Positions 1-23,898 of a DNA stretch of 64,000 nucleotides are shown here, piece after piece. Made by a program: the position numbers and the translations under genes. How positions within the stretch are numbered: the first letter of the stretch is position 1; each line of letters starts with the position of its first letter. The notes beneath the pieces were generated by a model. It had not been told where the DNA came from, did no database searches, and saw nothing but the letters and a program-made list of their open reading frames with translations. Source of the DNA: Schmidtea polychroa (taxonomy: Eukaryota); NCBI GenBank assembly GCA_044892525.1, contig CM097885.1:12650001-12714000 (forward strand), read 5' to 3'.

Positions 1-2
1 GT

Positions 3-3000
3 ATGATAGATGACGTAGTCATGATGTACGACAAAATAATATTACGGGCTGAAGGCGACACCTCGTTAAGTGAAATGGGAATGTGGGATAATCATCAAAT
101 CATCAGAATATTGCCCATGGACGAATTCCGAACAAGAGATATAACATACCAGAAAGAAATACGAGACAGGATGAAAACGCTATACCAAAAATCAGTAGAG
201 ATAATTGAAATTCATCAACAGTGGCTAAAAGAAAAAGAGCTTCAAGGAAAAATAAAGAAACTGAGTACTAGATCCTGCAGACGAACCCCATGGGAAAGGA
301 TGTGGAATGCGGAAAACAAAGAATGGGAAATCAGGAAAGGGATTTTCGTAGAAACAGACATTGGTGAGACAGAAAGTGAATCAGAAGAAGAGGAAGATGA
401 ACCTCCAAAATACGAAGAGGACGAAATAGAATCGATATCGGATGACGAAAGCGAAACGGATGTTACGTCAGAAAGTGAAACGGAAACCAGACATATTCAT
501 GCGATGAGAAAGAAAGAACGCGAATATGCTGATATGGACAGCGAAGAAGCGATGGAAGCTCGAGAACGAGAAGAGAAGGAAAGATATAAACAATTAGGTG
601 ATATCTTAGCAACGGGAGCAAAAAATCAAAAACGACAAGTAATAGCATTGGCTAACATCATCCTAAAGACATCAGAGAATATCCACAATCTAAGAGAAAT
701 GGCGAAAGCGATTGAGGAATACCGACAATATAACGAATGGTACCCAGAACAGCTAGAACAAATTATTAGGAAATGGAGAAACCAAGAATGGGCACAAGAT
801 ACCCAGGAAAGGTATCGTATCCGAGTCAAGTATCCCGACAAAAGCATTGAGGATACAGAAGTACATCCAACAACAAAGATCAGAGAGTTAAAAAAGAAAT
901 TAGCATACGAAACTCCATTTCACCTACAACTATTCGGAAAATCGTTGGATGATAATGCAGATGTCGGAATAACACCCATGAGATTGGGGGAGATCAATGT
1001 ATTGACAATGGCAGAAACATTGGGAAAACCGATTAAAAGGAAGAGCAAATCCAGTAAACCTACGAAAGGTAGCTTGAGTACACCAAGCCCTAACAAAGTG
1101 GCGAGTAAATCAAACGAAACCGAGGAGATCGAGGAGATCATATTGGAAGACAGCGATGAAGGAGCTGGGGAAAGATCACCAATTCTGGTAAGATGGCCGA
1201 CAGGGGCCGAAATATGGACAACAAGCCAACCATCAACTAGCTATCAACAACCAAATAAGCTGAACATAGAGGAAATTGTCGATAATACGACAGAAACCGA
1301 AACTGACGAACAATTTCAACGACAAAAAGGACCAACGAAAGCAATACCAGAAGGTCAAACGGACAAAATAATAGACGAATGGAATGAGTGGCTGAGAAAC
1401 AACGCTAGCTCATTGCCAAGAACAGATAACGAGAGAAACCCGAATTATGAAACGACAAGAGAAGCCGGAACAATGATGGAGAAACGGGCAAAAGGAAGAC
1501 CCAAGAAGCAAGGAGAAAAACCAGAATTTAAAACCAGAGAACAGTTGAAACAGGAACAAGGACAAGTCAGATTAGAGAAATTGGATAAAATAGTATGGGA
1601 CCTAAAAGAGGCCCAGCCAACAATCGAAAGAGGCGAAAAATGGATACGAGAGCTAGTAAAAGATATGCTAATAATAACGAACCCACAATTGCGACGGTTA
1701 TGGCAACGAAAAGTAGCAAGCGTAGATGCCAGACAGCTATGGAATACAATATCCGGAATAATTCCGAAATTAATCAAAGAGAAGACAAAAACCACTAAAA
1801 CCGATTGGGAAGAGACAAGAAGAGTAATTGAACAATTAACTTTAAACGCAAACGACGACGAACATCATTTAGTAGTATTAACGTATCTAATGTACAATTT
1901 GATGGGATTAGCAGCAAGGAAAATACCTAACAAACAATTCGCAAATCATGTAGAAATGACCGTTACAATCATTGAAAATACAATCGAACCACATATTATC
2001 CGTGCCGGTGGGTGGAAAAGACTCATACAAGCGCCACGAAAAAACGAGCAAGAGAGATCAATGCAAATTCGGTTGAAGAAATTGCTAAACGAGCTGGAAT
2101 GGGAATTGCCATTGAAAGACCCAGCCAGCAGAAAAGCGTCGATTAATTCACTAATGATGACCATGATGATATGGGTGCTCTGCACCAGTGGAGCCGCGGG
2201 ATTTACAATTTACGACTGTGACAATTCGATAATGGGAGAAAAATATTCCTTGAGGGATATAGAGGAATGTAGACAAGCATCTCCGAATAAATTGGATGTC
2301 GTGAAAAAGAAAGTCTCTTATCATGTATACCAAGAATCAGATTTTATTAGAACACAAGCAAGAGAATGCGTAGTATCAAAGAAGGTGTTGGCATATTACT
2401 GTGGACAATATTCGTATTCAACTCTTATATTACCCGGATTAGATAAAGAAATAGTACCTATACAACGAGAAGACTGTAAAGAGCTTTTTAGAACTGGAGC
2501 GATGAGAATCAGGGATGGAGTAACAATACACGGACAAAGCGGGATGATCAAGACTGAAAGCATCTATGTAGCCGGACGAGTAAAATCGACTGATGGATCA
2601 TGTAACGGAGGCACATACACGATCAGAGGAGAAGTGATCTCGGGAGTAGTAGTAATTGAGTCCTACACAGTGGAGTTGAAGGAATACGAAGCGCAATTCG
2701 ACGCAAACAACTATCAAATGAAAACCAACCCAGCATGTAGAGCCACGGAAAACGTGTGTAGAACGGGAATTTCGACTATAATCTATGAAGCTAACACCCA
2801 AAAATGCCGACTCCAATTGTTAAAAAGTGCTTTGTTCAACGAAGTAAAAGGAGAAATTTACGAAAACGAGGATGACGATGAAGAGAATGGAAACGTAAGG
2901 ATGCGAAATGGGAAACCAGTTCCACCATCCCCCAAAGAAAAGAGACTCACAACACAAAAAACACCAACGGCATTAATTACAGATGATCCAGATATCGGTA

Positions 3001-6000
3001 TGAGATTCATCAGAGAAAAAGAGACCACCAAATGTGACAGCATAGTATATCGGACGAACTACGCAGGTATTTACATGTCAAGACAAGTAATAGACCGAGC
3101 AGTGGGAAAGGTAGCAACAGAGGACGTAAAATTGTACCTGTACGCCAATAACAAAATGGACTTTTTATTCCATCGAGGACAAACGACAATGCAAAAAGTA
3201 TATTACGATCTTATACAAAATGACTGTTCATTGAATAAAGAGATACTAAAAACAAAATTAGCCATCGCAATAACACACCCAGATAACACAATGCCATCAC
3301 TCCCGTTACCGGATGGACATTTTGGTAGAATGGTGGGAGAGGTAATGTATACATATGCATGTACCAAGACGTTTGCGCGACTGCCAAGAAAGCCCACAAT
3401 TCCACCAGGGAAATGCGCAAACGAGTTGGAAATTAGTTACAAGGGGCGAAACAGATTCGTTCAACCCGTCACTAGAATTATGAACCCAATTGGATTTTAT
3501 CCGAACACCTTTAACTGTTCAAATGCATACGGACCGTTATATGAAAAACCCGATGGGAAATGGATAATGTTACCGGTAAAAACCGAAGTACAAGAGCCTA
3601 AAAAGTTTGGATTAATAGAACTCGCAACAGAGCAAGATTTCAAACCAATTGATGTGTCAAAAGCAGGTATGTACTCACCAGAGGATTTAGAAACAGCACG
3701 ACTAAACGTACTATTCCCAGCAAGGCGAGAATCCATTTTATCGAATATGGTTACCATAACCGGAGGAACAAATTTTCAATCAGGTCCAAATTATGAATTA
3801 TTATTGTCACCCGATCATTTTCAACAAGCCACGTCAAACATGATGAAAGCAATGTGGGGAAGATTTCTAGTGTTTGGTCAGATGATGGCAGGAATATTGG
3901 GAATCATCTTGATTATCCAGATTGTCAGAGTAATATTGACTCAAATGTTAGCGTGTTTTGATATCTATAAGAGGGAAAAGAAAGTAAATTGGAAATTGAT
4001 AGTAGGTTTTTTACCATTTTTGGCGAAAACAATGGTGTTGCACGGTCATTCTAAAGATATACACAGAATAAAACGATTAATCAAAATACTGACAAAAATA
4101 AAAGGGACTGACGAGGAAGTCGGTAGACGATTTCGGAAAACAATGTATGATGAAGCAACAAGGACGCAACTGAAAAAGAACAAACCAAAATTTTTAGACA
4201 GATTTAGAAATCGATCAAACAGCAGCGATAGTGATGATGATGATAACGGGAATGACAAATATCCATATCCAAGTAGAAACCCGAACGAAAGGCAAATAGA
4301 AACAGCACCATTTTGGGAGAAAGAAAAAACAAATACCTGGATAGCTAACGGGAGCTATATACCACCAGATATCGTTGGACAACAAACAGCTTTGACCATG
4401 ACACAAAATATGTATCCACAGTTACCAAGTCAACCAGGAATGAACTATATGCCAACCCGAAGAACGAAAAGCGTAGACCAAGCTGATGACGTTCGAACAA
4501 TAGCAGTAATGAGTTCACCAGGAGGCGCGGCAGTAACAGTCATGATCCAAATCAACGGGAAAGAGACAAGCGCAATGATAGATACCGGAGCAAATGTATC
4601 AGCAATAGCAATAAACCAAATACCCAGTAAATGTTGGAAAGACATCGAACAAACAACTATCCATATTATTGCATGCAGTAAAGAAACCGTAGACGTAGTA
4701 GGAAGATGGTGGACTACGTTACGATATCAAGATAATGAAATTGAAACGTATCTAGCGGTGATACCCAAACTGAGTGAACCATGTATAATCGGAACGGATT
4801 TAATGCCGGAATTGTTCAAAGAAGTAGTAATAGATCTAACAACAATGTGCCTAAAAGATAAAATGGGTAGAATATGCAAAATGAACGCAATAATCAGATG
4901 TCCGGAGAAAATAATTGTACCAGCAAAATCCCAGATGATATGTCAAATAAAAGTGGATGCAGGAATGGAAGGAGAAGCCATTTTTGAGCCAAGTAAATCA
5001 TTCGAAAAACGACGAGAATTACCATTAGCAAGAGAAATAATAACAATAAATGACGAAGGGGAAATACCAATTAACATCACAAATTTCGAGGAAGAAGACA
5101 AGATCATATATGAAAATGAAAGATTGGGTAGATTGACACCCATGATAGACATCGAATTACCAAAAATCACCAATGAAACAACGAAAGCTGACGAATTATG
5201 GATAATCGATAGCACATTGCTAACGGAAAAAGAAAAGGAAAGACTTCAACAATTATTGATAGAATATAAAGATATATTCGCTATTTCGGACTTAGATTTG
5301 GGAGCATGCGATGTTACATTACACGCAATACCATTAATAGACGAAACTCCAATCGCACTACGTCCATACAAACTAGCAGAGAAGCAAAAAGAGATAGCCG
5401 AAGCAGAAGTACAAAAAATGCTAGATGCACAAGTGATCGAACCAAGTTGTTCGCCATGGCAATTTCCAGTAGTCATGGTGAAGAAAAAAGACGGTACTCA
5501 GAGATTCTGTATCGATTATCGGAAACTAAACGCAGTAACAAAAAGAGACACATACCCGTTACCAGACATCAATGAGATGTTACTTATGCTGCAGGGGGCC
5601 GCATATTTTACGTCTTTAGATCTAAAAAGCGGATATTGGCAGATCAAAGTTAAAGAGGAAGACAAGGAGAAAACGGCCTTCACGTTGGGTCGAGACCTGT
5701 ATCAATTCAGGAAAATGCCATTTGGACTGACCAATGCCCCAGCATCATTTCAGAGATGTATGAATTTCGTCACGCACGGGATCAAGCAGTGCATGGTATA
5801 TATTGATGATTTATTAATATATTCAGCAACATTCGAACAACATTTGGAAGATATCAGAAACGTGTTCGTTCGATTACGACAATGGAAATTGAAACTCAAA
5901 CCATCAAAGTGTGATTGGGCAAAAGAAAAAGTTACGTTCTTAGGACACATAGTGTCAGCAAAAGGCAAAGAACCAGATCCAAGAAACATAGAAAAAATAA

Positions 6001-8390
6001 AAACATGTCCAGCACCAAAAACTGTCACCCAAGTTCAAGAATTTCTCGGATTATGCGGATATTATCGAAAATTCATCAAAAACTACGCAGGTATTGCGAA
6101 ACCAATACAGGAATTAGTGAAAAAGGATATTTCATTTATTTGGGGTGCAGAACAACAAAAAGCATTTGAGACATTGCGAGATAAATTAATTGAAGCCCCA
6201 ATACTGGTACATCCTGATTTCAAGAAACCGTTCTTATTAGCAACAGATGCAAGTGGATATGCAGCCGGAGCAATATTAGGACAACTGGATGAAGAAGGAA
6301 AAGAAAGAGTGATTGGATACTACAGCAGAACGTTTAAAAAGCACGAGAAAAACTATTCCGTAACCGAGAGAGAAGCGTTAGCAATTATACAAGCGATTAA
6401 ACATTTTCGATATTTGTTATGGGGACACGAAATATGTATCACCACAGATCACCAACCATTAGTATGGCTCGGTCAGCATAAGGAGGCGTCAAGCAGATTG
6501 ATGCGATGGGCAATGCAGTTACAAGAATATTCACCGTTCATAAAATTCAAAGCGGGAAGAGCGAATGCCAATGCAGATTGTATGTCAAGATTTATCTTTC
6601 CAGATTTAGTAGATCACGAAATGCAACGAATATGTCTGATGGTGGCGGAAGATTTAGATTTTTGCCAATTACGGAAAGACCAACAAGAGGATACAGAGTT
6701 GAAGCAAATCATTGAATATGTGAAAACAGGGAAAGCAGAGGTATATGAGAAAGATCAAAAATTGAAGGAGCATATGGATAAACATCGACATCGATATATA
6801 ATAGAGAAAGATTGGTTATTGATAATGGATGGCGAGAAAAGACTGATGTGCATTCCAGAAAATAGACGTAAAGATTTGCTAACGCAATATCATGACGGAA
6901 GACTCGGAGGACATATGTCATCCAAAAGGACGTTAGCCCGAATGAAACAAAAGTATTTTTGGCCTACCTTGACCGAGGATGTAACGGAATGGGTGAAAAA
7001 TTGCATAACTTGCGCCACCAGAAAAAACACGGGAACAAAATGGAAGGCACCATTAAAGCCAATGCCAGTACCAGCAGAACCAATGACAATGATATCTATG
7101 GATGTAGTCGGTCCATTACCAGAATCAGATAGAGGGAATATATATATATTGGTGATTACGGATTATTTGACGAAATTCCCCGAAGCATTCGCTATGGCAG
7201 ATCAGAAAGCAAGAACAATCGCGAAAATACTAGTAGAGGAGATATGCTGTCGATATGGAACACCAAAACAGATATTAACTGATCAAGGAACAAATTTCAT
7301 GAGTGAAATAATGAGCGAAGTCACCAACTACTTCAAGATCGCAAAATTAAGAACATCACCGTACCATCCACAAACTAATGGTATGACAGAAAGATTCAAT
7401 GGAACATTGATTCAAATGTTATCAAATTATGTCGATCGTCACCAACGGGATTGGGATGAGTATATAAAATTGTGTTTAATGGCTTACAGAATGTCAATTC
7501 ACGCGTCCACAAAGATGAGTCCGTTCAAGTTGATGTACGGCAGAGAATGCAATATGCCAATGGATTTAGAATATCAGCCACCAATATCACAGTATATGGA
7601 AATAGATGATTATGTAACCAAGTTCAAGGAAAGAATGCAAGAAATCTGGGAAACTGCGGGATTAAATATAAAGTTTTATCAGGAAAGTTACAAAGATCTG
7701 CATGATAGAAAGAAAAACGTTAAACAACATACATTTCAAACCGGTGATTGGGTGATGATCGAAACACCAGAATTAATTCCAGGAACCACCAAAAAATTAC
7801 AACGAAACGGCAAAGGTCCGTATGAGATTCTATTCGTCGGAGAAACCAATGTGAGAGTACGATTGGTAAACAACCCCTTCACGAGGCCAATATATGTAAA
7901 CGTGGCACGATGTAAGCCAATACCGAAAACAGCCACCAGCCAGCCGGAAGGGCGAACATTAACAACAAGATCACAAACGTATAGAATAAATATGTTACAG
8001 CAGATAAACGAACCAACAGGTAACCGATTGGGGTTACAACCATCAGAAGCCGAGAAAATCATAAAGGAAGTGAAAGCTAAAATGCCCGGATGGGCAAAAG
8101 ACAGATTAGATTTTGAGATATTGGGAGGTCTGCTAACCATGATCGAAAACTATGCAAACCGAGAAAGAACACACCCATTACTCAGGGTAGTAAAAAGTCA
8201 ATGGCCTATATTATTTACGATCACAGACCATTATGGAGATACACCGCTGCACAAACTTTTAAAGGTCGGGAATAATGAACAAATACTGGAAACGATCGAA
8301 GCATTTCGCGACTGTAACATTTCGACGGATCAAGAAAACAACCAAGGTTACACTCCACTAATGATAGCAGCCAATCGGGATAAAGCTTAA
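3..8390 (+). CDS. pol: Retroelement polyprotein (UBL, Bcl-2-like, glycoprotein, aspartic protease, RT, RNase H, integrase, start of ankyrin repeats); frame open at window start
   Basis: AMIDTGANVS (DTG at 4581), RFCIDYRKLN, LDLKSGYWQ, MPFGL, YIDD (5799-5810), ATDASG, H-x6-H...CxxC, DVVGP/TDQG/ERFN integrase motifs, GPY motif. Confidence 0.97.
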   Translation: MIDDVVMMYDKIILRAEGDTSLSEMGMWDNHQIIRILPMDEFRTRDITYQKEIRDRMKTLYQKSVEIIEIHQQWLKEKELQGKIKKLSTRSCRRTPWERMWNAENKEWEIRKGIFVETDIGETESESEEEEDEPPKYEEDEIESISDDESETDVTSESETETRHIHAMRKKEREYADMDSEEAMEAREREEKERYKQLGDILATGAKNQKRQVIALANIILKTSENIHNLREMAKAIEEYRQYNEWYPEQLEQIIRKWRNQEWAQDTQERYRIRVKYPDKSIEDTEVHPTTKIRELKKKLAYETPFHLQLFGKSLDDNADVGITPMRLGEINVLTMAETLGKPIKRKSKSSKPTKGSLSTPSPNKVASKSNETEEIEEIILEDSDEGAGERSPILVRWPTGAEIWTTSQPSTSYQQPNKLNIEEIVDNTTETETDEQFQRQKGPTKAIPEGQTDKIIDEWNEWLRNNASSLPRTDNERNPNYETTREAGTMMEKRAKGRPKKQGEKPEFKTREQLKQEQGQVRLEKLDKIVWDLKEAQPTIERGEKWIRELVKDMLIITNPQLRRLWQRKVASVDARQLWNTISGIIPKLIKEKTKTTKTDWEETRRVIEQLTLNANDDEHHLVVLTYLMYNLMGLAARKIPNKQFANHVEMTVTIIENTIEPHIIRAGGWKRLIQAPRKNEQERSMQIRLKKLLNELEWELPLKDPASRKASINSLMMTMMIWVLCTSGAAGFTIYDCDNSIMGEKYSLRDIEECRQASPNKLDVVKKKVSYHVYQESDFIRTQARECVVSKKVLAYYCGQYSYSTLILPGLDKEIVPIQREDCKELFRTGAMRIRDGVTIHGQSGMIKTESIYVAGRVKSTDGSCNGGTYTIRGEVISGVVVIESYTVELKEYEAQFDANNYQMKTNPACRATENVCRTGISTIIYEANTQKCRLQLLKSALFNEVKGEIYENEDDDEENGNVRMRNGKPVPPSPKEKRLTTQKTPTALITDDPDIGMRFIREKETTKCDSIVYRTNYAGIYMSRQVIDRAVGKVATEDVKLYLYANNKMDFLFHRGQTTMQKVYYDLIQNDCSLNKEILKTKLAIAITHPDNTMPSLPLPDGHFGRMVGEVMYTYACTKTFARLPRKPTIPPGKCANELEISYKGRNRFVQPVTRIMNPIGFYPNTFNCSNAYGPLYEKPDGKWIMLPVKTEVQEPKKFGLIELATEQDFKPIDVSKAGMYSPEDLETARLNVLFPARRESILSNMVTITGGTNFQSGPNYELLLSPDHFQQATSNMMKAMWGRFLVFGQMMAGILGIILIIQIVRVILTQMLACFDIYKREKKVNWKLIVGFLPFLAKTMVLHGHSKDIHRIKRLIKILTKIKGTDEEVGRRFRKTMYDEATRTQLKKNKPKFLDRFRNRSNSSDSDDDDNGNDKYPYPSRNPNERQIETAPFWEKEKTNTWIANGSYIPPDIVGQQTALTMTQNMYPQLPSQPGMNYMPTRRTKSVDQADDVRTIAVMSSPGGAAVTVMIQINGKETSAMIDTGANVSAIAINQIPSKCWKDIEQTTIHIIACSKETVDVVGRWWTTLRYQDNEIETYLAVIPKLSEPCIIGTDLMPELFKEVVIDLTTMCLKDKMGRICKMNAIIRCPEKIIVPAKSQMICQIKVDAGMEGEAIFEPSKSFEKRRELPLAREIITINDEGEIPINITNFEEEDKIIYENERLGRLTPMIDIELPKITNETTKADELWIIDSTLLTEKEKERLQQLLIEYKDIFAISDLDLGACDVTLHAIPLIDETPIALRPYKLAEKQKEIAEAEVQKMLDAQVIEPSCSPWQFPVVMVKKKDGTQRFCIDYRKLNAVTKRDTYPLPDINEMLLMLQGAAYFTSLDLKSGYWQIKVKEEDKEKTAFTLGRDLYQFRKMPFGLTNAPASFQRCMNFVTHGIKQCMVYIDDLLIYSATFEQHLEDIRNVFVRLRQWKLKLKPSKCDWAKEKVTFLGHIVSAKGKEPDPRNIEKIKTCPAPKTVTQVQEFLGLCGYYRKFIKNYAGIAKPIQELVKKDISFIWGAEQQKAFETLRDKLIEAPILVHPDFKKPFLLATDASGYAAGAILGQLDEEGKERVIGYYSRTFKKHEKNYSVTEREALAIIQAIKHFRYLLWGHEICITTDHQPLVWLGQHKEASSRLMRWAMQLQEYSPFIKFKAGRANANADCMSRFIFPDLVDHEMQRICLMVAEDLDFCQLRKDQQEDTELKQIIEYVKTGKAEVYEKDQKLKEHMDKHRHRYIIEKDWLLIMDGEKRLMCIPENRRKDLLTQYHDGRLGGHMSSKRTLARMKQKYFWPTLTEDVTEWVKNCITCATRKNTGTKWKAPLKPMPVPAEPMTMISMDVVGPLPESDRGNIYILVITDYLTKFPEAFAMADQKARTIAKILVEEICCRYGTPKQILTDQGTNFMSEIMSEVTNYFKIAKLRTSPYHPQTNGMTERFNGTLIQMLSNYVDRHQRDWDEYIKLCLMAYRMSIHASTKMSPFKLMYGRECNMPMDLEYQPPISQYMEIDDYVTKFKERMQEIWETAGLNIKFYQESYKDLHDRKKNVKQHTFQTGDWVMIETPELIPGTTKKLQRNGKGPYEILFVGETNVRVRLVNNPFTRPIYVNVARCKPIPKTATSQPEGRTLTTRSQTYRINMLQQINEPTGNRLGLQPSEAEKIIKEVKAKMPGWAKDRLDFEILGGLLTMIENYANRERTHPLLRVVKSQWPILFTITDHYGDTPLHKLLKVGNNEQILETIEAFRDCNISTDQENNQGYTPLMIAANRDKA
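810..1010 (+). other. Ubiquitin-like domain within polyprotein
   Basis: YRIRVKYPDKSIEDTEVHPTTKIRELKKKL...QLFGKSLDD follows the ubiquitin pattern (I.VK...; V.P..TI..LK.KI; L.F.GK.L.D). Confidence 0.65.
1600..2040 (+). other. Bcl-2-like helical domain within polyprotein
   Basis: BH2-like EPHIIRAGGWKRL, preceded at Bcl-2-like spacing by a hydrophobic helix HLVVLTYLMYNL; canonical NWGR of BH1 absent. Confidence 0.55.
2148..3960 (+). other. Env-like glycoprotein (class III fusion / chuvirus-G-like): internal signal, Cys-rich ectodomain, TM anchor
   Basis: Signal LMMTMMIWVLCTSGAAG then FTIYDC...YSLRDIEEC; ~550-aa Cys-rich ectodomain; TM MMAGILGIILIIQIVRVIL. Confidence 0.75.
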
Positions 8391-11219
8391 GATATTATTA
8401 TCGCATTACTTGAAACTGGGTCAAAGATAACCACACAAGATCACAACCAGAAAAATGCACTACATCATGCAATCGAAGGGAAAAGTACGAAAGCCTTCAT
8501 AATCTTAGTAGATCTATTATCATACGAGGATAATAGGGAGATAGGAAACATGTATGACGGGCTATTAACTGCAATCAAAGAGAAATTAATAACAATTGCT
8601 GGATTACTAATTGCATGGAGGAACCCGATCAAAAACGATTATATGGTAGATATAAACGAAACATTTACCAAAGGAGAAAACACCTTGATGAGAGAAGCGA
8701 TGAGAGGACATCACCTATTCGAAATTCCAAATCAACTACTACAACGTGGCATAAAGTTCTCAAATCACAAAGACGAACAACTAATTAGAAAACGAATTAC
8801 CAACTTCGAAAAAGCTATATCTCAATTTACCGATAAAGTACAAGTAAAATTTTGGGAAACCGTGAGTGTATTATATATGATGGAAAATATGAATAACATT
8901 CGAGAAACTTACCTAAGCATTATTCAAGTTCTAACGGCAGAGGAACGCATTAACAGTTCGAACAAGAAAAAGATAAAAATCAAGAAAATAACAGCAAGGG
9001 AGTCTGAGAAACAAGTCAATCAAATAATAAGCGATATAGCAACAACAAGTAAACCAAAGATAATAAACTCCGACCAAGAGATAGTAGTACGTAAGGCTAA
9101 AGAAGTATTCTTGGAAGAAATGCAAGATCTATCCGATGAAGTGATACTAGCAAAAATAACAAAAACAGTACACACCTACGCAAGAGACCAGACCACAAAT
9201 CTAGACATAGGAAAAATAAAAACATTTATACCACTCGCATTCACCTTACCAACAAAAGATTCAAGAACACCATTACAACAAGCCATTTTAGCAGCAAAAG
9301 AAAACAGAGCAATAACCATCATAAGAATTCTTAGAGACTTCGGAGAAGAATCTAATGCAAAAAATGAATAAGGAGAAACAGCAATGATGTATGCAGCAAT
9401 AACAAAGATACACCCGAAAACCTTACATATACTACATCAATCAGGTTCGAGACTTGACGAAATATCAAACGAAGGAAATTCTACCATGGATTGGGCAACA
9501 ATACAACCAAACTTGGAAATGATTAGATTCATTTGTAAAAATGCTACAAGAACTGAGGTAGAAAATATCTGTAAAAACACGTCACAGTTCCAATGGAACA
9601 CGATACGGATGAACTTAGAAGCCATGAAGTTATTGCTAACATGGAAAATACCGCAAAGCAATAAATATGCAATAAATATAAATGAGTTCTACGAAAACGG
9701 AGAAAATGCTATGGTTAAAAATACACTAACAAAAGGAGGAACTCCGAAAATCATAATGATCGTATTGAACAGAGAAGACCTCAAATTCACGCAAAATCTA
9801 AACGAACAAAAGCGAATCGGAAAACATCGCCGTATACAATTGAGAGAACTGGTAAAAGAATGGAATAGAAAGAGACATGTAGCAACAGGCAGAAAAGAGT
9901 TTGAATTCGAAGCAAAATTAGCAAGAAACAGAGTGCTAACGGCATACCGCAGATTGTTGAATGATATAAATGTCGAGGACGACATTTTAAACGATAGCGG
10001 GGGAGATGAAGACGATAAAGACGACGATAATAATGAAAAAGGTCGAAACGGGAATAAAGAGAAAGAGAAATCAGAGGAGAATAATCAAGAAAATAACGAC
10101 GCGAGTAGGAAAAAAGAGGAAAATAACCCGGGAAACCGAATGAAGCAAGAAGAAAAGACGAATAGTGGAAAACAGAGGGTATGCCTACTTTTTACCAACA
10201 AAGAAATGGAGACAAATATGATGATAATGATACTCGTATTAACAATGGTGGAAATGATAACAGCCCAGGGAGGAATGAGAACGATAAAAGAAGCCAAAGA
10301 AACGGAAAATAAGGACAACAAAGAGGAAGAACTAAAACAAGAAAAGAAAAAACAAGTACAAGAGCAGCAATGGGATCTAAAAGAAGAATGGGATTTAAAA
10401 GAAAGGTGTATATTAGGAAGATGTATGTCTAGAGCTTATCAGAGACTAGTGTTAAAAAATGAAGATGCAGAACCAATAACGGAAGTGGGAATACAAGAAG
10501 CGTACCAACATCGAAACGGGAAGAAGATAACAAAAGTCAAATGGAAAGAGGTACACCTGAGTAAAGGAGGTGAAATAGTGATAACACAGCTTCAACCAAG
10601 AAAAGAGCACAAAGTGTGTATTTCAAGGCTAGGCCCAGGAGAAAATTGTCTACAATATGTAACGCAACAACAACCACCAAAGGAATATACGGTCTGTATC
10701 CTGAGAAACGGTCCAGAAAGAGAATGTCGACGATACCCTGGGAAAAGAGGGAAGAAAAGAAAAATCAATGACGAAAAAGATGAGCAAGGAAAACGCAAGA
10801 AAACCAGTGAGAAACATCAGGACAATTATGTATCCGAGGAGGAGATGGAGAAAATACAAAAAATGGCAAAGGAAGGTATGAACGAGGAAATAGCAAGAAT
10901 ACGAGGAATGATAAAAGGAAATGGCAAAGACGGTAATCTAAAAAGCACAGAGGCAATATCAACAATAACGAACAAGGAAAAAGCGGAAATTATAAGCGTG
11001 AAACAGATGATGTGGATCAGCGGCATAATAATAACAGGGGCCTTTTTAATCATAACGAGGGGGACAATAAAAATAATCAAAGATAGACGGCATCGCGGAG
11101 AACTAGAAATGGCCAGAATAAGAAATTTTCAACATCGTGTAAAACGACCAAGTAATATCAAGCGGGAACAGTGGGTGGAGGCCTGGAATGCTCAGCGCCC
11201 TCCAAGCTCACGTATATAG
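8391..11219 (+). pseudogene. In-frame continuation of the polyprotein: ankyrin repeats, acidic linker, second signal peptide + ectodomain + TM; broken by TAA at 8388-8390 and 9369-9371
   Basis: ORFs starting 3, 8550 and 9384 share one frame; stops fall inside ankyrin repeats (GYTPLMIAANRDKA*DIIIALLETGS; SNAKNE*GETAMMYAA). Confidence 0.85.
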
Positions 11220-11387
11220 AAAGGATTATGACTGTATATAGATTGTAAAAAGTAAGTAGATAATATTTATTTATATAACAGTATGATATATTTTTATATA
11301 ACCGCGGTATCAATATTATATAACGATGGGGATAAATAATATAAAAATAAAATTGGATAAGGGTTGAAAAGTATATATAAATTAAGA

Positions 11388-11747
11388 ATGGAGCGAATAG
11401 GCGAGGAAGTAAATCACAGTACGACAACCGAGGAGATGTGGAAACAACAATGTGCAATGTTAACTCAAGTGATTTCGAATTTACAGGAACAAGGACTCGC
11501 TGTACAAAGAAGCTTAGTCGAAAGTTTAAATAAAGGCTTCAGTTATGTAAGAATAATCGAAGACCAACGAATAAAAATAGAACAAATGCAGCGAGAGATA
11601 GACCGAATATCACGACACAGCCAGGTGCAAGAAGAGGAGTTAATAAGAATCGCGGAAGAGATGGAGCGAGAGGAGATAGAAGACTGGTCAGAATGGTTAA
11701 CCAGTAGGGAAGAGGGCGGACAAGAGGCCGACTCTTCCAGCCAATAA
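11388..11747 (+). CDS. Accessory coiled-coil protein of the retroelement
   Basis: ATG at 11388 within ORF 11364..11747; E/Q/R-rich heptads; composition like the polyprotein. Confidence 0.6.
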   Translation: MERIGEEVNHSTTTEEMWKQQCAMLTQVISNLQEQGLAVQRSLVESLNKGFSYVRIIEDQRIKIEQMQREIDRISRHSQVQEEELIRIAEEMEREEIEDWSEWLTSREEGGQEADSSSQ

Positions 11748-11836
11748 ATATAACCTAAAATAGCAATGTAAATAACTGTAAATAAAAATACGAAACTGTA
11801 CCAGTAACGAATATATGTATATATATAATTATAGAA

Positions 11837-13225
11837 ATGGATAAGCGACAACGAGAAGAATTCAAAGAAATTGTTGAACAAGTCAGAAAGTCCACCACAA
11901 TTCGAATACACAACCATGTAACGTGTGGAATATGCAAGAGCTTATTAAGAGAACCTCACCAAACCAGATGTGGATGCAGAATGTGCAGAGAATGTGTAGA
12001 GGAGATAATAAAGAAGGGACCACAATGGTGCCCAGTATGTAAAGAAACCATGATAGCAAGTTTGGGAGATACAAACGAAGATAAAGCAGCCGTGAAAGAT
12101 ATGTTAAATTCAAATTTAGGATGTAAAAACACCCCATGCAATTGGCGAGGAGTGATATGGGAAGTGAGGCAACATATGGAGCAATGTGAGTATAAAATCA
12201 GTCAATGCAAACGTTGCCAAGAAGAGATTAAAGTCAATGAAGAAGCAGAACATCAAAGTCGATGCGAAGAAAGACTGGAGAAATGTGAGTATTGCGGAGA
12301 AACCGACACCTGGAAAAAACTAATCAGTCAACATCACAACATACAAGAGGAGAAAGTGTGCGCAGGGTTCAGAGGAGAATGTCCCAATAAATGCGATAAA
12401 TCTGGAGTAATAAGACTCGCTCAACATCTCAGAGAATGTGAAAGGAAAAAGATAACGTATGTGCTAGGAAAATGGGGATGTCAGAAACAATTACACCGAG
12501 GAGAATTACTCCAACATCTAGCAGAAAACGTATCAACACACGCGGAAATATGGTCAACGGTATTACAAGAAAACGAAAGGAAAACCGAAAACTTAGAGAA
12601 AGAAATGGTCTCGCTAAAAGCGTTGGTAAAAGAGTTATTGGAAGAAAAGGAAGCATTTGAAGGGGCGAGAACAAGTACAAAGATACAGACAGATCTAGTG
12701 GAAACTAGCAACATTATGGTGAAAGAACTACATCAAAAAGTAAGCGAATTAAACCTCAACGAATTAATACCAACGGCTCCATACATATGGAAAATAACGG
12801 GAGTAAAAGAGAAGATGCAGAGAGCGAGAAATGGAAAGGATACAACATTACTAAGTCCAGCATTCTACTCATGGAAAAACGGGTATAAAATGAAAATGAA
12901 AGCATACCCCAATGGGGATGGAAGTGCATACGGAACGCATTTCTCAGTATTCTTCTTGATGTGCAAAGGGCTATACGACGAGTTAATAGAATGGCCATTC
13001 AAAGCAAAAATAGACCTCGCAATGATGAACTATCAAAGTATACATGAACAGAGTTTCCATACAGCGGGAAACCTCGTATGTTACCAAAGGCCCTTGGAAG
13101 AAGAAGGACCAGCAACTGGAGCACCGAATTTCATCCTACAGCGGAAAGTAGAAGACATGACGAGAAACGACACTATATACATAAAAATAGCGGTGAGGCG
13201 AGACGGGAAGAGTAGGACTGAGTAG
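11837..13225 (+). CDS. TRAF-like protein (RING, TRAF zinc fingers, coiled coil, MATH), intronless
   Basis: CGICKSLLREPHQTRCGCRMCREC...CPVC; CKNTPCNW; MATH YIWKI...LLSPAFY...GYKM...YPNGDGS.YGTHFSVFF...EWPF...DTIYIKI. Confidence 0.95.
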   Translation: MDKRQREEFKEIVEQVRKSTTIRIHNHVTCGICKSLLREPHQTRCGCRMCRECVEEIIKKGPQWCPVCKETMIASLGDTNEDKAAVKDMLNSNLGCKNTPCNWRGVIWEVRQHMEQCEYKISQCKRCQEEIKVNEEAEHQSRCEERLEKCEYCGETDTWKKLISQHHNIQEEKVCAGFRGECPNKCDKSGVIRLAQHLRECERKKITYVLGKWGCQKQLHRGELLQHLAENVSTHAEIWSTVLQENERKTENLEKEMVSLKALVKELLEEKEAFEGARTSTKIQTDLVETSNIMVKELHQKVSELNLNELIPTAPYIWKITGVKEKMQRARNGKDTTLLSPAFYSWKNGYKMKMKAYPNGDGSAYGTHFSVFFLMCKGLYDELIEWPFKAKIDLAMMNYQSIHEQSFHTAGNLVCYQRPLEEEGPATGAPNFILQRKVEDMTRNDTIYIKIAVRRDGKSRTE

Positions 13226-13443
13226 AGAGACGAATAATTTTGTATATACTAATTGTAAATATCGGCATATATACCCCGTAAAATATTATATAGTAGTGTA
13301 GAAAAATCCCCCAAATCTACTAAAGGTAAACTTAAGCGTAAAACTCCTAAAACAACTCCTATAACGAATTGTAAAAATAAATAAATAATAAACCAGATAT
13401 AAGCGTACAACGTTGAGTTAATGATATCGTTATTTAGACAAAG

Positions 13444-14480
13444 ATGACTCAAGATCAAACGGAAGCCCCAAATAACGAAATAAACATCAGTAGAATACAT
13501 AGAGAAAGATGGGCCAAAGTGATGGCACAATTATCAAATCAAACACGAAATTACCTCGAAGAAGCGAGAGAATGGGAAAACCACCAGTTCCAGTGGTTAG
13601 TACAGAATTTACGGACGGAGGCCGAGGCCTGCAAAAGAGCCGCCAAATGGTCTGCATTAGAAAATACCAGGCAAGAGGCACACGGGCATTACCTGAAGCA
13701 GCTGGTACAGGAGTCAAGAAAAAGACTAACGGATGAGAATAAGAAGCGGGAAATAGAAAAACAAAAGGGGAACGAAAGACCCGCCAACTATTAGCAGAAG
13801 CCAGAAAGTGGAAAAAACAACATATAGAAATCCAAAAAGAGATGAGAGAATTGCCGCAGAGATTGGAACACGAGAGTGATCAAGGGAAATGGGAAGAAAA
13901 CCGGGATCAGAAAGAAGAGCTAAGAAGGCTCCGGAAAGTAGCAGCTAGAAGTCAAACCTGGCAGACCAAGGCCATGGAATTTGAAAAGCATCTGGCCATG
14001 AAACTGTCCATGAAGGAACAGGAGAATACCGCCATGGAAGAGATGATCCTGCAACAGTCAGGTAGAATCGTCGAACTCGTAAACAAGGTGGCAGACCTTG
14101 AAAGAGACAATAACGGCTATAAGGGGGCACTAGAACAAAGGAATATAGTGCTAGCCGGTAAGAACAAGAACTTGGAAAACGAGAGGAAGATGTATGACGA
14201 AAATATCAAGAACCTCGAAAAGGAGATCAAAAAATGGGAGAACGGCGAAAAAGCGGAGGAGTTAGAAAAACAGATAGAAGTAAGAGATGATGAAACCAGG
14301 TATCTGACATACCTGTTAGACGAGGAACTCAACGTGTCAAGAGCGCTAAGAGACGAAGTTCAGGAGCTTAGAGCGCAGATTCCCCGGTACTACATCCCAT
14401 TCGATCCCATCGCAATCCAACTACAAACGTCAATAGACAGCGATGAAGGGTATGTAGGCCAGGAAGAAACCTTTGTATAA
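13444..14480 (+). pseudogene. Accessory coiled-coil protein, probably one gene split by a frameshift near 13770-13790
   Basis: ORFs 13444..13794 and 13842..14480; the second frame is open upstream (LLAEARKWKKQH), echoing YLEEAREWENH in the first. Confidence 0.55.
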
Positions 14481-14531
14481 AGATAAGGAGAAAAGATAAA
14501 AAAAAAATATAAAAAGCGGGACCTGTATCCC

Positions 14532-14557
14532 AAAAAAAAAAAAAAAAAAAAAAAAAA
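14532..14557 (+). repeat. Poly(A) tract (A26) in accessory-gene spacer
   Basis: Direct reading. Confidence 0.9.
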
Positions 14558-14672
14558 TTATTAGTACGATAAAAATATTTACGGGACTGTAACCCTGATT
14601 ATATAAAATTACCTATAAATGTATAAGTATAAGCCGCACTGTAGCGCACTATTAATTGTAAATATTGTAGAA

Positions 14673-15380
14673 ATGAAAATAGAAGAAATATCCACCATGA
14701 CCGAGCTAGAAGAGGGAGAAATTGAAACAGACCCCATAAAAATGAAAACGCCGAAGGACGAGTTGATAGAGGAGAAACAGGAAAAAGAAAGGATGATAGA
14801 CAAATATATGGATGATCGAAGAATGATAAAGGTGCTAAAAAGGGAATGCAAAACATTGGAGGAAATAAAGAAAGAAGTAGAAGTAGAAAACGAATGGCTT
14901 CACGAACAAAGAAAGCGAGGGAGAAACTGGGAAAAGATCGCGGAAGAATTATGGCAGGAGAGAGCCAGTTTCAAGGCAAACGAAGTAATTGAAGATTATT
15001 GGAAAACGGAAGCAAGGAAACGACAAGAAACCATCAAGGAGTTAGAAAACCAGCTGGAAGTAAAAGTACAAGAAAGTACAGAAATGGAGAAATGGAATAG
15101 TAAATATCGAGAAATAGAAACAAAACGGCAGAAACAAAACTCAAAGACAAACGACCCAGAGGAACATGATTTCCTACAATGGGAACTGGAACGGAACCTG
15201 AAAGAAAAGAAGAAGGAGATAAAAACCTTGAAAAGAGAGATAAGACACTTGACAGACAAGGTCCACGAGAAAGAGAGACAACTAGAAATGTTGCCGGAAC
15301 TCCGACATAGAGTCATTAAAGCGGAGTCTAAATTAATGCGAATCCGGGAGAAAAACCCTAAAAAGAAACGACAAAATTAA
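14673..15380 (+). CDS. Accessory coiled-coil protein with basic C-terminus
   Basis: ORF 14619..15380, likely ATG 14673; long E/K heptads; ends KNPKKKRQN. Confidence 0.65.
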   Translation: MKIEEISTMTELEEGEIETDPIKMKTPKDELIEEKQEKERMIDKYMDDRRMIKVLKRECKTLEEIKKEVEVENEWLHEQRKRGRNWEKIAEELWQERASFKANEVIEDYWKTEARKRQETIKELENQLEVKVQESTEMEKWNSKYREIETKRQKQNSKTNDPEEHDFLQWELERNLKEKKKEIKTLKREIRHLTDKVHEKERQLEMLPELRHRVIKAESKLMRIREKNPKKKRQN

Positions 15381-15424
15381 AACCGACAAAAAGCGATGTA
15401 TATAAATGTGTATAAAATTACTAA

Positions 15425-16099
15425 ATGTATATCAGTAGTATGAGAAACAAACCGATCATAGTAATCCTGATGATGACGATAGTCCTTGATCTGGCAAGGC
15501 GACAACCCGTAAAACCCGAAATTGAACATATTCGAGACAGCAGAAAACCCAACCAAAAGACCGAACCAACAGCCAAATCATGCATCTATCCAAGTATCAT
15601 AAAAACCCGTCTTACCGACAATATTCGAGCCACCCGAACGTACGTCAACAATATCAGATTAATGTGTAATAACCACCCCATGTGCAAAATTATTGATAAA
15701 AGAATCCTGGACCAAATTCACCAACTCGATCAGCTGGAACAACAGGTCCAACATCAAGAAATACAAAACCCAGTCGAACCAGTAGAAATCGCCAAAGAAA
15801 TAAATGACCACCATGAACTCCTCTACGTAGTAATCGTCGAAACCACCGTAATCATGGTAATCATCCTCCCAAAAATCCATAATATCTACCAAGTTTGGAA
15901 GAAAAGTCACCCCGTACCGGAAAGATCGTCTCGAAGATCCCAAGAAGCTAATATGGCTGACGTAATCCAAGAAAATCTCCGACAACGAACCTCCATCGCA
16001 GAAACAGTCAGACCGTCCACAAGTCGCCGAATATACTACAACATCGAAACCCAACCACCAAATCACCCATCATCAATGGCAACCGAACAACAAACATAA
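15425..16099 (+). CDS. Accessory predicted membrane protein
   Basis: N-terminal hydrophobic IIVILMMTIVL, three Cys, TM-like LLYVVIVETTVIMVIILP, cytoplasmic tail. Confidence 0.6.
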   Translation: MYISSMRNKPIIVILMMTIVLDLARRQPVKPEIEHIRDSRKPNQKTEPTAKSCIYPSIIKTRLTDNIRATRTYVNNIRLMCNNHPMCKIIDKRILDQIHQLDQLEQQVQHQEIQNPVEPVEIAKEINDHHELLYVVIVETTVIMVIILPKIHNIYQVWKKSHPVPERSSRRSQEANMADVIQENLRQRTSIAETVRPSTSRRIYYNIETQPPNHPSSMATEQQT

Positions 16100-16354
16100 C
16101 ATTTCGAACTGTAACTATTCACAAAATTTTTGCTGTTTTATTATCTTCTGATGAAACCGGTCACCTTAAGTGGCCACTGCTTGCTTATATTTGTCATTTT
16201 CTCTGTTTAATTAAAGTATTTTTGTGTTAATTTGATTTTATGTTTGTGTGGATTTTGATTGTGAGATTATGGGTTATACCGAAAGAAGGTATGATCTAAA
16301 TGTATGATATTGTGTGAATTGCGGGACGCAATTTTAACGGCCCCCGGAGTGATT

Positions 16355-17114
16355 TGTTGGGCCAAGCTCTGAAGGTGTTGGAAAAACGAACCCAGGAAGA
16401 GACAGAGTAAATAAAATAAAAACATATAAAAATTACGAGAAATATAGGAAGAAACAAATTAAACATCCATAAAGAGACAAGAATAACTAAATAAAATAAC
16501 AAAACCTGTAAAGGGGAAATAAGACAAAAGGGAAGGCACCCAATGAGCATAACAGTAAAAGAGAAATAAAATGGCACAAAATTTAAGAAAAACAAATGAA
16601 AATTAAAGGAAAACAAAATAAAAATAAAATCATCCATAAGGTTAATTAAAACAAAAAATGAAGTTACAATAAAATAGCAATAAAACCACAGAAAAATAGG
16701 AGAAAAATAATAAAAAATAGGAAAATAAATAAAACAATAATAGAAATAGGTAGGGTCATTAAAATATAATATACTACGATAAGAAAAACATAAAATAATA
16801 ATAAATAACAAAATTACAAGCAAGGTGTGTCCTGATTGGACGGAAAATAATATATAAAGAGCAACCAAACTCTGTAGAGTATCATTCTAACCCGAAACTC
16901 TACAGGTAAAATTTATTTAAAAATTATCATTCTAACCCGAAACTCTACAGGACGAAACTAGGAACCACTCACGAGCACAGACTTACGAACGATATTCATA
17001 CTTGGACATAACAGATAGTACTTAGAGGCAAATAATAGTCGAGATCGAATCCAGTTGAGAAGAACCAGTCTAACTAAGGAAAAATTTGACAAAACTTTGA
17101 TTTCAATCCCAACA
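16355..17114 (+). repeat. Probable 3' LTR (760 bp)
   Basis: 7-bp inverted termini TGTTGGG/CCCAACA; internal TATATAAA near 16850; ~27-bp internal duplication (16880, 16925); 5' LTR not in window. Confidence 0.6.
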
Positions 17115-19290
17115 CCTTCGGAGAATTTTGGTAAATTATGTTTTGAATTTTAGTATGATAATTTTAATGTTTACTATGAATTTAATATCAAAAGACGTTT
17201 TATGTTTCAATAAAATTTATATTTAAAAACAAAAGATGTTGCTTTCTCTCTATGATGCTGGCGACGACGCCTTTTGGAGTTCGGGTATGATGCGGCTAAA
17301 TTACGTGTGCATTTCAGAGAGAGCTTATGAATATGAATACCCAGAAATTGAATTGACAGAACCAGCCAAGGATCTACATGAACTTGGGTACTATGATGAT
17401 TACTTAATGAATGTAAAAATGTACGATGGCAAGAGTCATCATACCCGGAATCCAGATGGCGTGGTCGCTAGGTAAACGTTTATTTATTTGATTTTTCTTT
17501 TAATTTCATTATTCCCATATTTGTTTGACAGTAATATGAATTTATTAATTGTACATTTATTGGAGAAGGATTTGAGATAAGTCGGGTCGAGTTGTCCTTC
17601 ACGACGGTCCAAGGGCAGTGGGCAGAAATGCGTACTGTCCTTGGGTGGGTTGTGAGGGGTGAGGAAACCCTGTGAGAGAAAACGAATCGAGTCAATGATC
17701 TTTCCATCGAGTGCTATCTATAAAATTAGCCGTCGAAAGCTTTCTATTGAGGAAACTTCTGAGCGATACTGTTTCGATGCCGACAACGTGCTGACCGAAA
17801 ATTCTAGGAGATCGACGACATTTTTCGAGATTTAATCCGAGTTTGAGTTTGGCTATATTCAATTCAGAGCTAAGTTACTTCTTTTCGTCAGAATGTGAAT
17901 ATCGACTATCCTTGAGGGTAATGAAATTCTCGAACTTCACTGATAATTCTAACGTCCATTTTCGTTTCTTGATGAATGATAAAAATCTAGAATATTCTAT
18001 ATTCCTAAGAATTGATAAATTAAGAGAACGTTAGCGATTAAACCCATCGCGGTGATATGTCAGTTGACGAGTAGGAGACTTAATTATCAACCTTCGATTA
18101 GCTGCTGTCATCGATAAGAATTTGCCCTGACAGAAAAGTAAATAGCAAAGTTCTAATTAATCATAGGTACTTACTACAGTCCTAAAGGAAATTATCAACG
18201 ACCATTTCGAACAAATTATCGATAAATTTTCCATCTGATCGAGAAACGACTATTGCAGGGAAGCAAGTAGCGTAGATAAAATATCCCAGCAGTTCGATTG
18301 TGGAACGACATGCGCCAAATCGATGAGACGATTAGGTTTTTTGAGAATAGTCAACATTCACGAGAGAGACAGGAGTTAAATCCATTCTTACCCGGTAACA
18401 GATTTGGGCAATCTTGAAATCATAACAATCGTTACTTCTATAAGCCGGACTCATTATCTTCCATCCGTCTAGCCCATCTGCTAGTAATGTTATAACTGAG
18501 ATAAGCAGACCCAAACCCATACACAGATAAATCCACTAATACATGGGACGTGAGTGAGTCGACATCATCATTGCGTCATAGTAGAATGTGTTAGTAGGCA
18601 TGCATAAATAAGCGACGAGATCAAAGTACACTAACAGACACAATGTCTAGAATTTGTTAAGAGAGGACAGCGATAATTGAGTAAAACGAGATAATACACA
18701 TTAGCGCACATCAGGTAGAGTCTGAAACCAGTACACAACTACATACCGATACGCGTCGTTATGACAACATGAAATGCGAAAATTTAAATAATTAAATTAT
18801 AATTTATGAGGGAAATTAATACTAATAATAATTTTTAACAAATTCGTTTTAACCTAACACAGCGCAAAAATGCATCAACAGCATGGAACTACTTCTTTTA
18901 AATTAAAGCAGGCATAACTCAATAAGCCATAAAAACCAGGGAGTAGACCCACCTTCAATAGGTCATAATAAATAAAAGTAAAAAAATATATTAGTGGTAA
19001 GGAGTAACTTATTGCGATTAGATGATAACTGTCGACCCAGGAACCTAGGTACAATATCAATATGGGTAGAGAAATAACGTGTGATGGTTCTCATTTTCTC
19101 TTCATTACGAACGATGTGATGAGTTGATTTGAAGGTTTACGGTTTGGATGAGTTAAGTGATGTCAAAGGTATGGATGTGGGGGACAATCCTGATTGTATG
19201 CATATGTGGTAGGATAAAGCCCACGATAAAAAGAAAATAAATAGTAGAAAGGATTTTAATGATGTAAATAACGGACTTCTCATTCTTTAG

Positions 19291-20595: not shown

Positions 20596-20600
<5 letters not shown>

Positions 20601-20660
<60 letters not shown>
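20601..20660. repeat. (AAT)n microsatellite
   Basis: Direct reading. Confidence 0.95.
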
Positions 20661-20664
<4 letters not shown>

Positions 20665-20942: not shown

Positions 20943-21074
<132 letters not shown>

Positions 21075-23807: not shown

Positions 23808-23898
23808 TTTAGTACAACTTCATCATTATACGACACAGATATTTTGAGTTGAAGAATCATTCACCTTCGCTGACGAATTATATATTGATAAACTTGAT

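Follow-up and report, generated by a model that had tools for sequence, protein, structure and literature searches.

What kind of genetic unit accounts for the run of open reading frames (ORFs), all on the plus strand, that fills the first 16 kb of a stretch of the Schmidtea polychroa genome? The stretch, called the window here, is 64,000 nucleotides long (assembly GCA_044892525.1, contig CM097885.1, forward-strand positions 12,650,001 to 12,714,000), and its plus strand is A-rich over these 16 kb (AT skew 0.25-0.44, GC 0.36-0.40). An initial annotation had placed there, at 3-16099, one giant enveloped Gypsy-type element carrying cell-death and NF-kB genes. Paired long terminal repeats (LTRs), the Pfam domains and the location of all modules on the plus strand bear out a single element with an envelope and genes of this type. 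The annotated span is very probably the interior of an endogenous, retrovirus-like LTR element of 28.6 kb, of Ty3/Gypsy lineage and the planarian Burro kind, equipped with an envelope fusion glycoprotein (Env) and a cell-death and signalling set. Positions below are those of the window, negative ones lying upstream of its first base, and the features are collected in Table 1.

The LTRs form a direct repeat of 99.716% identity. Both copies start with TGTTGG and end with CCAACA, and the same four bases flank the pair on the outside. This candidate target-site duplication is moderate support, the outer flanks being AT-rich. An 18-nt, TGG-initiated motif resembling a primer-binding site lies 8 nt past the 5' LTR, and it may resemble a tRNA-Pro site. 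No tRNA gene for priming was found within the 64-kb window or in 23 further loci. Because the LTRs pair on either side of the TRAF cassette, the 3' LTR lying downstream of it, the cassette is internal and the element measures 28.6 kb after a 2.34-kb deletion. The span originally annotated does hold the series of modules, but is only the internal part of an element that starts 7,997 bp before the window and ends at position 20574.

Paired LTRs, TG..CA ends, a target-site duplication and a primer-binding-site-like motif are the structural marks of a Ty3/Gypsy LTR element. The order of Pol, with protease (PR), reverse transcriptase (RT), RNase H (RH) and integrase (IN), and an RT nearest to that of Ty3 likewise place it in Ty3/Gypsy (Metaviridae). 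In a sequence search of solved structures with RT-RH-IN, the closest relatives were Ty3 Gag-Pol (6.8e-121) and Ty3 RT (4ol8; 2.4e-93), and foamy-virus and gamma-retroviral RTs were far weaker (about 1e-35). Since its closest solved relative is Ty3, Pol is of the Gypsy/Ty3 type.

Most of the coding capacity lies in one giant polyprotein, ORF1. It was compared between copies on the basis of seven 30-kb sister copies and the listed coordinates of RT and TRAF matches elsewhere in the genome. The ORFs 3-8390, 8550-9371 and 9384-11219 are a single reading frame, split by two private nonsense codons; two of the seven fetched sister copies have it uninterrupted, with 4,760 and 4,811 codons. The ATG at position 3 is an artefact of the window edge, because the frame is already open 606 bp upstream of the window. 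In the uninterrupted sisters ORF1 begins with Gag (Retrotrans_gag 2.3e-10; zf-CCHC 1.4e-11, three CCHC knuckles), followed by a long acidic and helical region, two ubiquitin-like (UBL) segments and a Bcl-2-like domain. Then come a signal-anchored fusion glycoprotein of the mononegavirus type, PR, RT, RNase H, IN, an ankyrin block and a second segment flanked by a signal and an anchor.

In the window copy the 2,795 codons of ORF 3-8390 contain Pfam domains for Env, protease, RT, RNase H and integrase, with weak ankyrin similarity at the end. The fusion glycoprotein and the Pol domains (RVP, RVT_1, RNase H, Integrase_H2C2 and rve, E-values from 1e-7 to 3e-39) were correctly recognized in the initial annotation. 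So were the ankyrin repeats, which are weak here (Ank_2 8.3e-5, below cut-off) versus 6.1e-22 over four stretches in an uninterrupted sister. Its two further membrane proteins were also recovered: they are the C-terminal part of ORF1, for which ORF 9384-11219 gave no Pfam family, and a small protein near the 3' LTR, each with two hydrophobic segments.

Env lies in frame between the Bcl-2-like region and the protease. It scores above the curated Pfam cut-off, starts with a hydrophobic segment and ends in a C-terminal anchor, as a Monjiviricetes fusion glycoprotein should. The Pfam profile alignment begins at residue 716. The 715 residues before it had no match among proteins of 1,537-4,892 residues and only 2 among 1.84 billion representatives, and a PDB sequence search with Env or with the N-terminal region returned no matches.

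The Bcl-2-like and ubiquitin-like modules stood up less firmly: the matches are consistent with the initial annotation and with each other, but they are weak and below the Pfam cut-offs (E=0.028 and 0.023, respectively). The Bcl-2-like region scored 15.4 bits against PF00452 (curated cut-off 31.4), and the first UBL segment of a sister copy matched ubiquitin at E=0.45, also weak. A Pfam Bcl-2 scan of the genome uncovered a second, diverged family of giant-ORF elements with a Bcl-2 match of up to 29 bits. Its open frames reach about 3,090 codons, and in them too a UBL segment is followed by the Bcl-2-like region and then by the Env signal. The Bcl-2-like regions of the two families are 20-22% identical and have the GGW motif in common. 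When a profile built from both families was searched against PDB sequences, Bcl-xL and Bcl-2 chains made up 59 of the best 60 rows (best E=0.035), with alignments that span BH1-BH2 and include the GGW motif. Two AlphaFold2 models of the region were all-helical and of low confidence (pLDDT 48.4 and 44.2). Foldseek found no match at E<=0.001; its highest-probability rows were Bcl-xL (probability 0.89, TM 0.47), the model being too poor for these to count as evidence. The ESM Atlas had no look-alike of the region above 0.79. Taken together, these weak but mutually consistent matches hint at Bcl-2-like and ubiquitin-like modules. A further high-copy repeat in the genome has a Bcl-2-like frame of about 176 codons (32-34 bits), with one TAG in nearly every copy.

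Downstream of ORF1 there are six ORFs, including a TRAF-like protein and the small membrane protein, and one more ORF, with an IAP-type RING, precedes ORF1. As first annotated, the TRAF-like protein is complete, since its C-terminal half (residues 219-453) matches TRAF3 in the PDB (5.4e-28; also TRAF2) and its N-terminal part (residues 27-157) the RING-zinc-finger part of TRAF6 (1.3e-14). It has all parts typical of the TRAF family (Pfam: RING zf-C3HC4 9.5e-5; MATH_2 6.6e-25). Identity to database TRAFs is 24-29%. At 40331-40948 on the minus strand, the window also contains an exon for the N-terminal end of a host-like TRAF, with a RING and a TRAF zinc finger. As the donor of the element's TRAF it was rejected, with only 26% identity. 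Just outside the element, a 186-aa ORF at 21311-21871 on the minus strand ends in an IAP-type RING (zf-C3HC4_3 4.8e-10). This RING and the one in the upstream ORF of the element share 35% identity over 65 residues.

The block of accessory ORFs at 11.2-16.3 kb could in principle have come along as a passenger, either through a nested insertion or as a host gene fragment trapped by a single copy. Its ORFs lack retroviral homologues, and the host-like TRAF exon elsewhere in the window could be taken the same way. That exon is too dissimilar, the block sits between the paired LTRs and is under purifying selection (see below), and other copies share it: TRAF is present in all seven fetched copies, and the block is collinear in 34 of the 40 RT matches listed. 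The comparison of copies rules out a passenger origin, to which we assign a negligible probability. The initial annotation treated these extra modules as belonging to the element, and they do recur in its other copies.

The family as a whole is large. With a 2-kb RT probe, 1,489 candidates came up in the genome, and the 40 that were scored are 96-100% identical; a TRAF protein probe gave 2,106, of which 92 were scored (91-100% identical; 84 of the 92 without a stop codon). For 34 of the 40 RT matches listed a TRAF match lies 6,410-6,462 bp downstream on the same strand (expected 6,437); the remaining 6 have no partner among the 92 TRAF matches listed. A genome-wide count of the 16-mer at the core of the primer-binding motif gave 1,074 occurrences, versus 0 for a reversed control, which suggests roughly a thousand copies. 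All seven sister copies are collinear with the window over the retained parts, and their TRAF ORFs are all open, with 92-99% amino acid identity. The family is abundant, and it is also young, because the LTR pairs are 99.26-100% identical in all five sister copies whose 30-kb sequence includes both LTRs.

The window copy itself is a dead end. At about -209, every sister copy has an insert relative to it (2.34-2.37 kb in six, 4.9 kb in one), and this segment encodes Retrotrans_gag and the three CCHC knuckles in a sister copy. Gag with its zinc knuckles is thus present in the sister copies and absent from the window copy through an in-frame deletion. The deletion junction occurs only once in the genome with up to 2 mismatches allowed, which rules out a subfamily that lacks Gag and still propagates. 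The stop codons at 8388 and 9369 read AAA and CAA in all six comparable copies, and programmed stop-codon read-through at these positions is likewise ruled out. The copy, though recently inserted, is defective: its in-frame loss of Gag and both of its nonsense codons are private to it.

Selection was measured as the ratio of non-synonymous to synonymous divergence (dN/dS; Nei-Gojobori) between the window and sister copies, in pairs that are not independent and with some values based on few substitutions. Copies with internal deletions or disruptions gave two further values (0.45 and 0.77), which are left out of the ranges. The ratio was 0.01-0.05 for Env, 0.00-0.04 for the Bcl-2-like region, 0.00-0.02 for PR, RT, RH and IN, and 0.00-0.13 for all other polyprotein domains; one 80-codon comparison of the second UBL segment gave 0.53, from 2 non-synonymous changes and 1 synonymous change. 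ORF 9384-11219 gave 0.10-0.16. Among the accessory genes, TRAF had 0.09-0.27, ORF 13842-14480 0.05-0.13, and the three ORFs within 13444-15380 together 0.05-0.27, one disrupted copy excluded. The 119-aa ORF had 0.06-0.37 in six of seven comparisons, the seventh being undefined (synonymous divergence, dS, of 0). Values were highest for the upstream RING ORF (0.11-0.51) and the small membrane protein at 15425-16099 (0.31-0.43), which is close to unalignable in three of the seven copies. Every module is under purifying selection between diverged lineages of the element. This is what is expected, for Env and the accessory genes, of a replicating and possibly infectious lineage such as the initial annotation put forward; the description would fit the family but not the window copy, which lacks Gag and has two nonsense codons.

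Env is under selection as strong as Pol, and therefore a membrane-fusion step, with cell-to-cell or infectious spread, may belong to the life cycle. The family could also be a strictly intracellular retrotransposon whose Env and accessory genes serve membrane-associated assembly or self-regulation, without any infectious phase. We consider this possible but rather unlikely. In its favour, all evidence comes from genome sequence, simple retrotransposition would account for about 1,000 copies passed on vertically, and the literature examined gave no particle or transmission data. An intracellular life cycle sits poorly with the fact that missense changes are purged from Env as strongly as from RT and IN (dN/dS 0.01-0.05), and that its signal-like start and membrane anchor are retained. 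The insect errantiviruses gypsy and ZAM are likewise Ty3/Gypsy elements that move between cells and have acquired a fusion glycoprotein from a virus. In them env is of the baculovirus F type and is expressed by splicing from its own 3' ORF, and they are not known to have cell-death or signalling genes, whereas the env of the present family is of the Monjiviricetes type and part of the polyprotein frame.

The synonymous divergence is uneven along the element. For one pair of copies dS was 0 in the second UBL segment, 0.055 in 8550-9371, 0.56 after IN, 1.44 in 13842-14480 and 1.6 in 14619-15380. Between copies the LTRs are also much more diverged than pol. Such a pattern suggests mosaic recombination between element lineages.

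The LTR contains a gene of its own. Of 11 other LTR copies, 9 have its 253-aa ORF intact (68-83% amino acid identity), and dN/dS is 0.06-0.10 in frame versus 0.99-3.2 in the other two frames, which served as controls. Its GC content of about 41% is above that of the rest of the element. It matched no Pfam family, had no homologue in a database search and no ESM Atlas look-alike above 0.79. The sag gene of mouse mammary tumour virus and the nef gene of human immunodeficiency virus also lie in or overlap an LTR. They have no known sequence similarity to this ORF and belong to orthoretroviruses, in contrast to a flatworm metavirus.

In all 13 copies a pyrimidine-rich AG abuts the ATG of the LTR ORF, even though the sequence upstream is otherwise unalignable between lineages. 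The ORFs at 11837 and 13444 have acceptor-like TAG or CAG trinucleotides 2-6 nt ahead of their start codons, and in the ORF at 11388 an AAG precedes the ATG by one base. These AG dinucleotides hint that the LTR ORF and the downstream ORFs may be expressed by splicing. GT..AG ends were found at 0 of the 15 joints listed, out of 19, in the stretch 8000-16300, which does not reach the LTR ORF and in which the aligned runs are contigs of unknown kind.

How might such a protein set work? The polyprotein would be threaded through the membrane of the endoplasmic reticulum (ER). Gag, the UBL segments and the Bcl-2-like region would be cytosolic, and the hydrophobic segment at 2151-2201 would act as an internal signal that sends the Env ectodomain into the ER lumen. 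The anchor at 3864-3959 would then bring the chain back to the cytosol for PR, RT, RH, IN and the ankyrin block. Lying 43 residues past the BH2-like motif, the signal segment could also stay on as a tail anchor for the Bcl-2-like domain. Env would permit passage of particles between cells. Survival of the cell that produces them could be secured by the Bcl-2-like, RING, TRAF-like and ankyrin proteins, which could also dampen signalling through TRAF; the element may in this way manipulate apoptosis and NF-kB. Bcl-2 homologues, ankyrin proteins and TRAF-targeting proteins of large DNA viruses would have the same host pathways as targets; here the carrier is reverse-transcribing and the modules are partly fused into Gag-Pol.

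The TRAF-like, RING, ubiquitin-like and ankyrin proteins might instead serve the element's own life cycle, in ubiquitin-dependent trafficking, budding or turnover of Gag and Pol, and leave host apoptosis and NF-kB-type signalling alone. A complete RING kept in the TRAF-like ORF, two UBL segments within the polyprotein and the lack of a known target would agree with such a role. We hold it to be a minority possibility: from the known functions of their families, a Bcl-2-like region, an IAP-type RING and a TRAF-like protein together indicate cell-death and signalling pathways, and the same inference has been published for Burro (the part of PMC6431247 on Burro).

The observations on the LTR gene, the start of Env and the swings in dS could be joined in one tentative scheme, which we think doubtful as a whole. 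The LTR gene and several of the downstream ORFs, TRAF included, would be spliced in cis or by spliced-leader trans-splicing; the segment at the start of Env would double as a tail anchor of the Bcl-2-like domain after signal-peptidase cleavage; and the swings in dS would reflect frequent recombination of co-packaged genomes, with Env-mediated spread from differentiated tissue into stem cells. If this were true, the family would resemble a complex retrovirus with an unusual membrane-threaded polyprotein, beyond what has been published for Burro. In S. mediterranea, according to a passage of PMC8532177, BURRO1 is expressed, enriched in the intestine and repressed by a PIWI protein. Such intestinal expression would fit a route from differentiated to stem cells.

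The Burro kind of element, and the central idea, are already published, and the initial annotation is a rediscovery of them. According to the part of PMC6431247 on Burro, Burro elements of S. mediterranea (= GYPSM1; Jurka 2007, Grohme et al. 2018) exceed 30 kb and are present in thousands of copies. Burro ORF1, of 4,873 aa, is described there as having Gag with three CCHC knuckles and MATH_TRAF_C, Ubi2/SUMO-like and BCL2-like motifs, with env in frame between BCL2 and PR and matching mononegavirus fusion proteins. A dUTPase-like motif, ankyrin repeats and BIR are also listed. The same part of the paper puts forward the hypothesis of integrated proviruses meddling with apoptosis and ubiquitination. 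Its motifs were annotated with HHpred, which is more sensitive than hmmscan as used on the window.

Compared with that description, the window family shares the length of about 30 kb, the Gypsy type, a multi-thousand-residue ORF1, Gag with three CCHC knuckles, ubiquitin-like and BCL2-like motifs, the placement of Env and its mononegavirus-type fusion matches, as well as ankyrin, MATH/TRAF, tandem repeats and high copy number. Its size agrees with Burro (about 30 kb or more, ORF1 of about 4,900-5,100 aa), given sister frames of 4,760 and 4,811 codons, and Env is again in frame between the BCL2-like motif and the protease. In Burro1, as described there, MATH_TRAF_C is inside ORF1, upstream of the ubiquitin-like motif, whereas here TRAF is a separate full-length ORF downstream. 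The window family further differs from the described Burro in the IAP-type RING ORF upstream of gag and in the conserved ORF inside the LTR; the text of section 7 of PMC6431247 on Burro, figures aside, makes no mention of an ORF within the LTR. Another relative is the Burro-like element of Girardia (Dugesia) tigrina, which, in the same part of that paper, also has a giant ORF1 (5,140 aa) without MATH/TRAF, the latter having its own accessory ORF. There the accessory ORF is upstream and ORF1 has a midasin-like region and two CCHC knuckles, in contrast to the downstream TRAF, three knuckles and lack of a midasin match in Pfam found here.

Several points weigh against the assignment to a Burro-type element with a cell-death set. 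MATH/TRAF is not within ORF1 (in two sister copies a MATH domain is absent from the first 1,000-1,462 ORF1 residues). Between PR and RT, hmmscan over 4800-5480 gave no match to the dUTPase family PF00692 at E<=10, and there is no BIR match among the element ORFs scanned with Pfam. The assignment to the kind is by architecture, compared with the published description of Burro/GYPSM1. The Bcl-2-like and UBL scores are under the curated cut-offs and both AlphaFold2 models have low confidence, the dN/dS values carry the limits of non-independent pairs and few substitutions given above, and the evidence for the family is genomic only, the functional steps being inferred from sequence. The literature search, which did not extend to Grohme et al. 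2018 and its supplement, returned no description of Burro elements of Schmidtea polychroa. On balance the window copy is probably a defective member of an undescribed family, or of a species variant, of the Burro kind.

Table 1. Features of the element, in window positions from 5' to 3'
Feature	Position	Strand	Details
5' LTR	-7997..-3778 (contig 12642003-12646222)	+	4,220 bp, pairs with 3' LTR
IAP-type RING ORF, 171 codons	-3377..-2865	+	between 5' LTR and ORF1; zf-C3HC4_3 E=1e-8, RING at end
Tandem repeat, 74 bp x 8.6	upstream of window, between 5' LTR and ORF1 frame		
Giant ORF1 polyprotein, remainder in window copy	1-8390	+	frame open from -606
First ubiquitin-like segment, C-terminal part	1-125 (starts at -126)	+	weak: PI3K_rbd E=0.014
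Second ubiquitin-like segment	813-1016	+	weak: Pfam ubiquitin PF00240 E=0.023, below cut-off
Bcl-2-like region (weak match)	1560-2150	+	BH1-like 1863-1922; BH2-like GGW motif 2007-2024
Env, mononegavirus/jingchuvirus-type fusion glycoprotein	2148-3971	+	PF24664 Monjiviricetes_fusion E=2e-72, 244.6 bits (cut-off 27)
Hydrophobic signal-like segment at Env start	2151-2201	+	43 residues past BH2-like motif
Env membrane anchor	3864-3959	+	Kyte-Doolittle hydrophobic peak
Aspartic protease	4539-4814	+	RVP E=1.3e-7
Reverse transcriptase and RNase H	5478-6530	+	RVT_1 7.5e-37, RT_RNaseH 2.9e-39
Integrase, H2C2 zinc domain and core	6852-7424	+	Integrase_H2C2 3.1e-20, rve 3.7e-12
Ankyrin-repeat block	8290-9530 (approximate)	+	broken by private nonsense codons at 8388-8390 and 9369-9371
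ORF1 C-terminal part	9384-11219	+	signal-like segment 10218-10274, Cys-containing stretch, membrane anchor 11007-11078, basic tail
Accessory ORF, 119 aa	11388-11747	+	helical/acidic; open in 7/7 copies
TRAF-like protein, full-length	11837-13225	+	RING, TRAF-type zinc fingers, coiled coil, MATH/TRAF-C
Three accessory ORFs	13444-13794, 13842-14480, 14619-15380	+	coiled-coil by eye; no Pfam family
Small protein with two hydrophobic segments	15425-16099	+	segments 15455-15496 and 15818-15871; fast-evolving
3' LTR	16355-20574	+	4,220 bp, 12 mismatches to 5' LTR
253-aa ORF within 3' LTR	19291-20052	+	twice per provirus: same ORF in 5' LTR
Candidate 4-bp target-site duplication ATAA	20575-20578	+	same ATAA directly 5' of 5' LTR

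The rest of the window contains other mobile elements. Right after the 3' LTR there are long simple-repeat arrays of the AAT/ATT type (poly-Asn-coding), both direct and inverted, at 20564-21147, 26315-26760 and 28191-28338. The stretch 22401-34713 has two diverged, inverted PolB fragments, with arms that are 75-80% complementary and Maverick-like ORFs between them; it is interrupted by a pogo/Tigger-type DDE_1 transposase ORF (31097-32116). A Maverick/Polinton-type element with perfect 503-nt inverted repeats at its ends occupies 43647-58567. It encodes a protein-primed PolB over two ORFs, an A32-type packaging ATPase, a double-jelly-roll capsid protein and an rve integrase with an N-terminal phospholipase-A2-like domain.

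Elements of the Burro type make up a large share of planarian genomes and are the clearest reverse-transcribing carriers of Bcl-2-like, IAP-RING, TRAF-like and ankyrin genes, which are usual in large DNA viruses. To the existing motif-level description of Burro, the present family adds a quantitative case that purifying selection maintains Env and each of the accessory genes in lineages that are both young and abundant, a layout with a free-standing, complete TRAF, and a selected gene within the LTR. In planarians, descent to the next generation passes through stem cells alone. If the proposed functions are true, planarians would be a tractable system for studying how an endogenous retrovirus controls cell death and TRAF signalling to reach stem cells.

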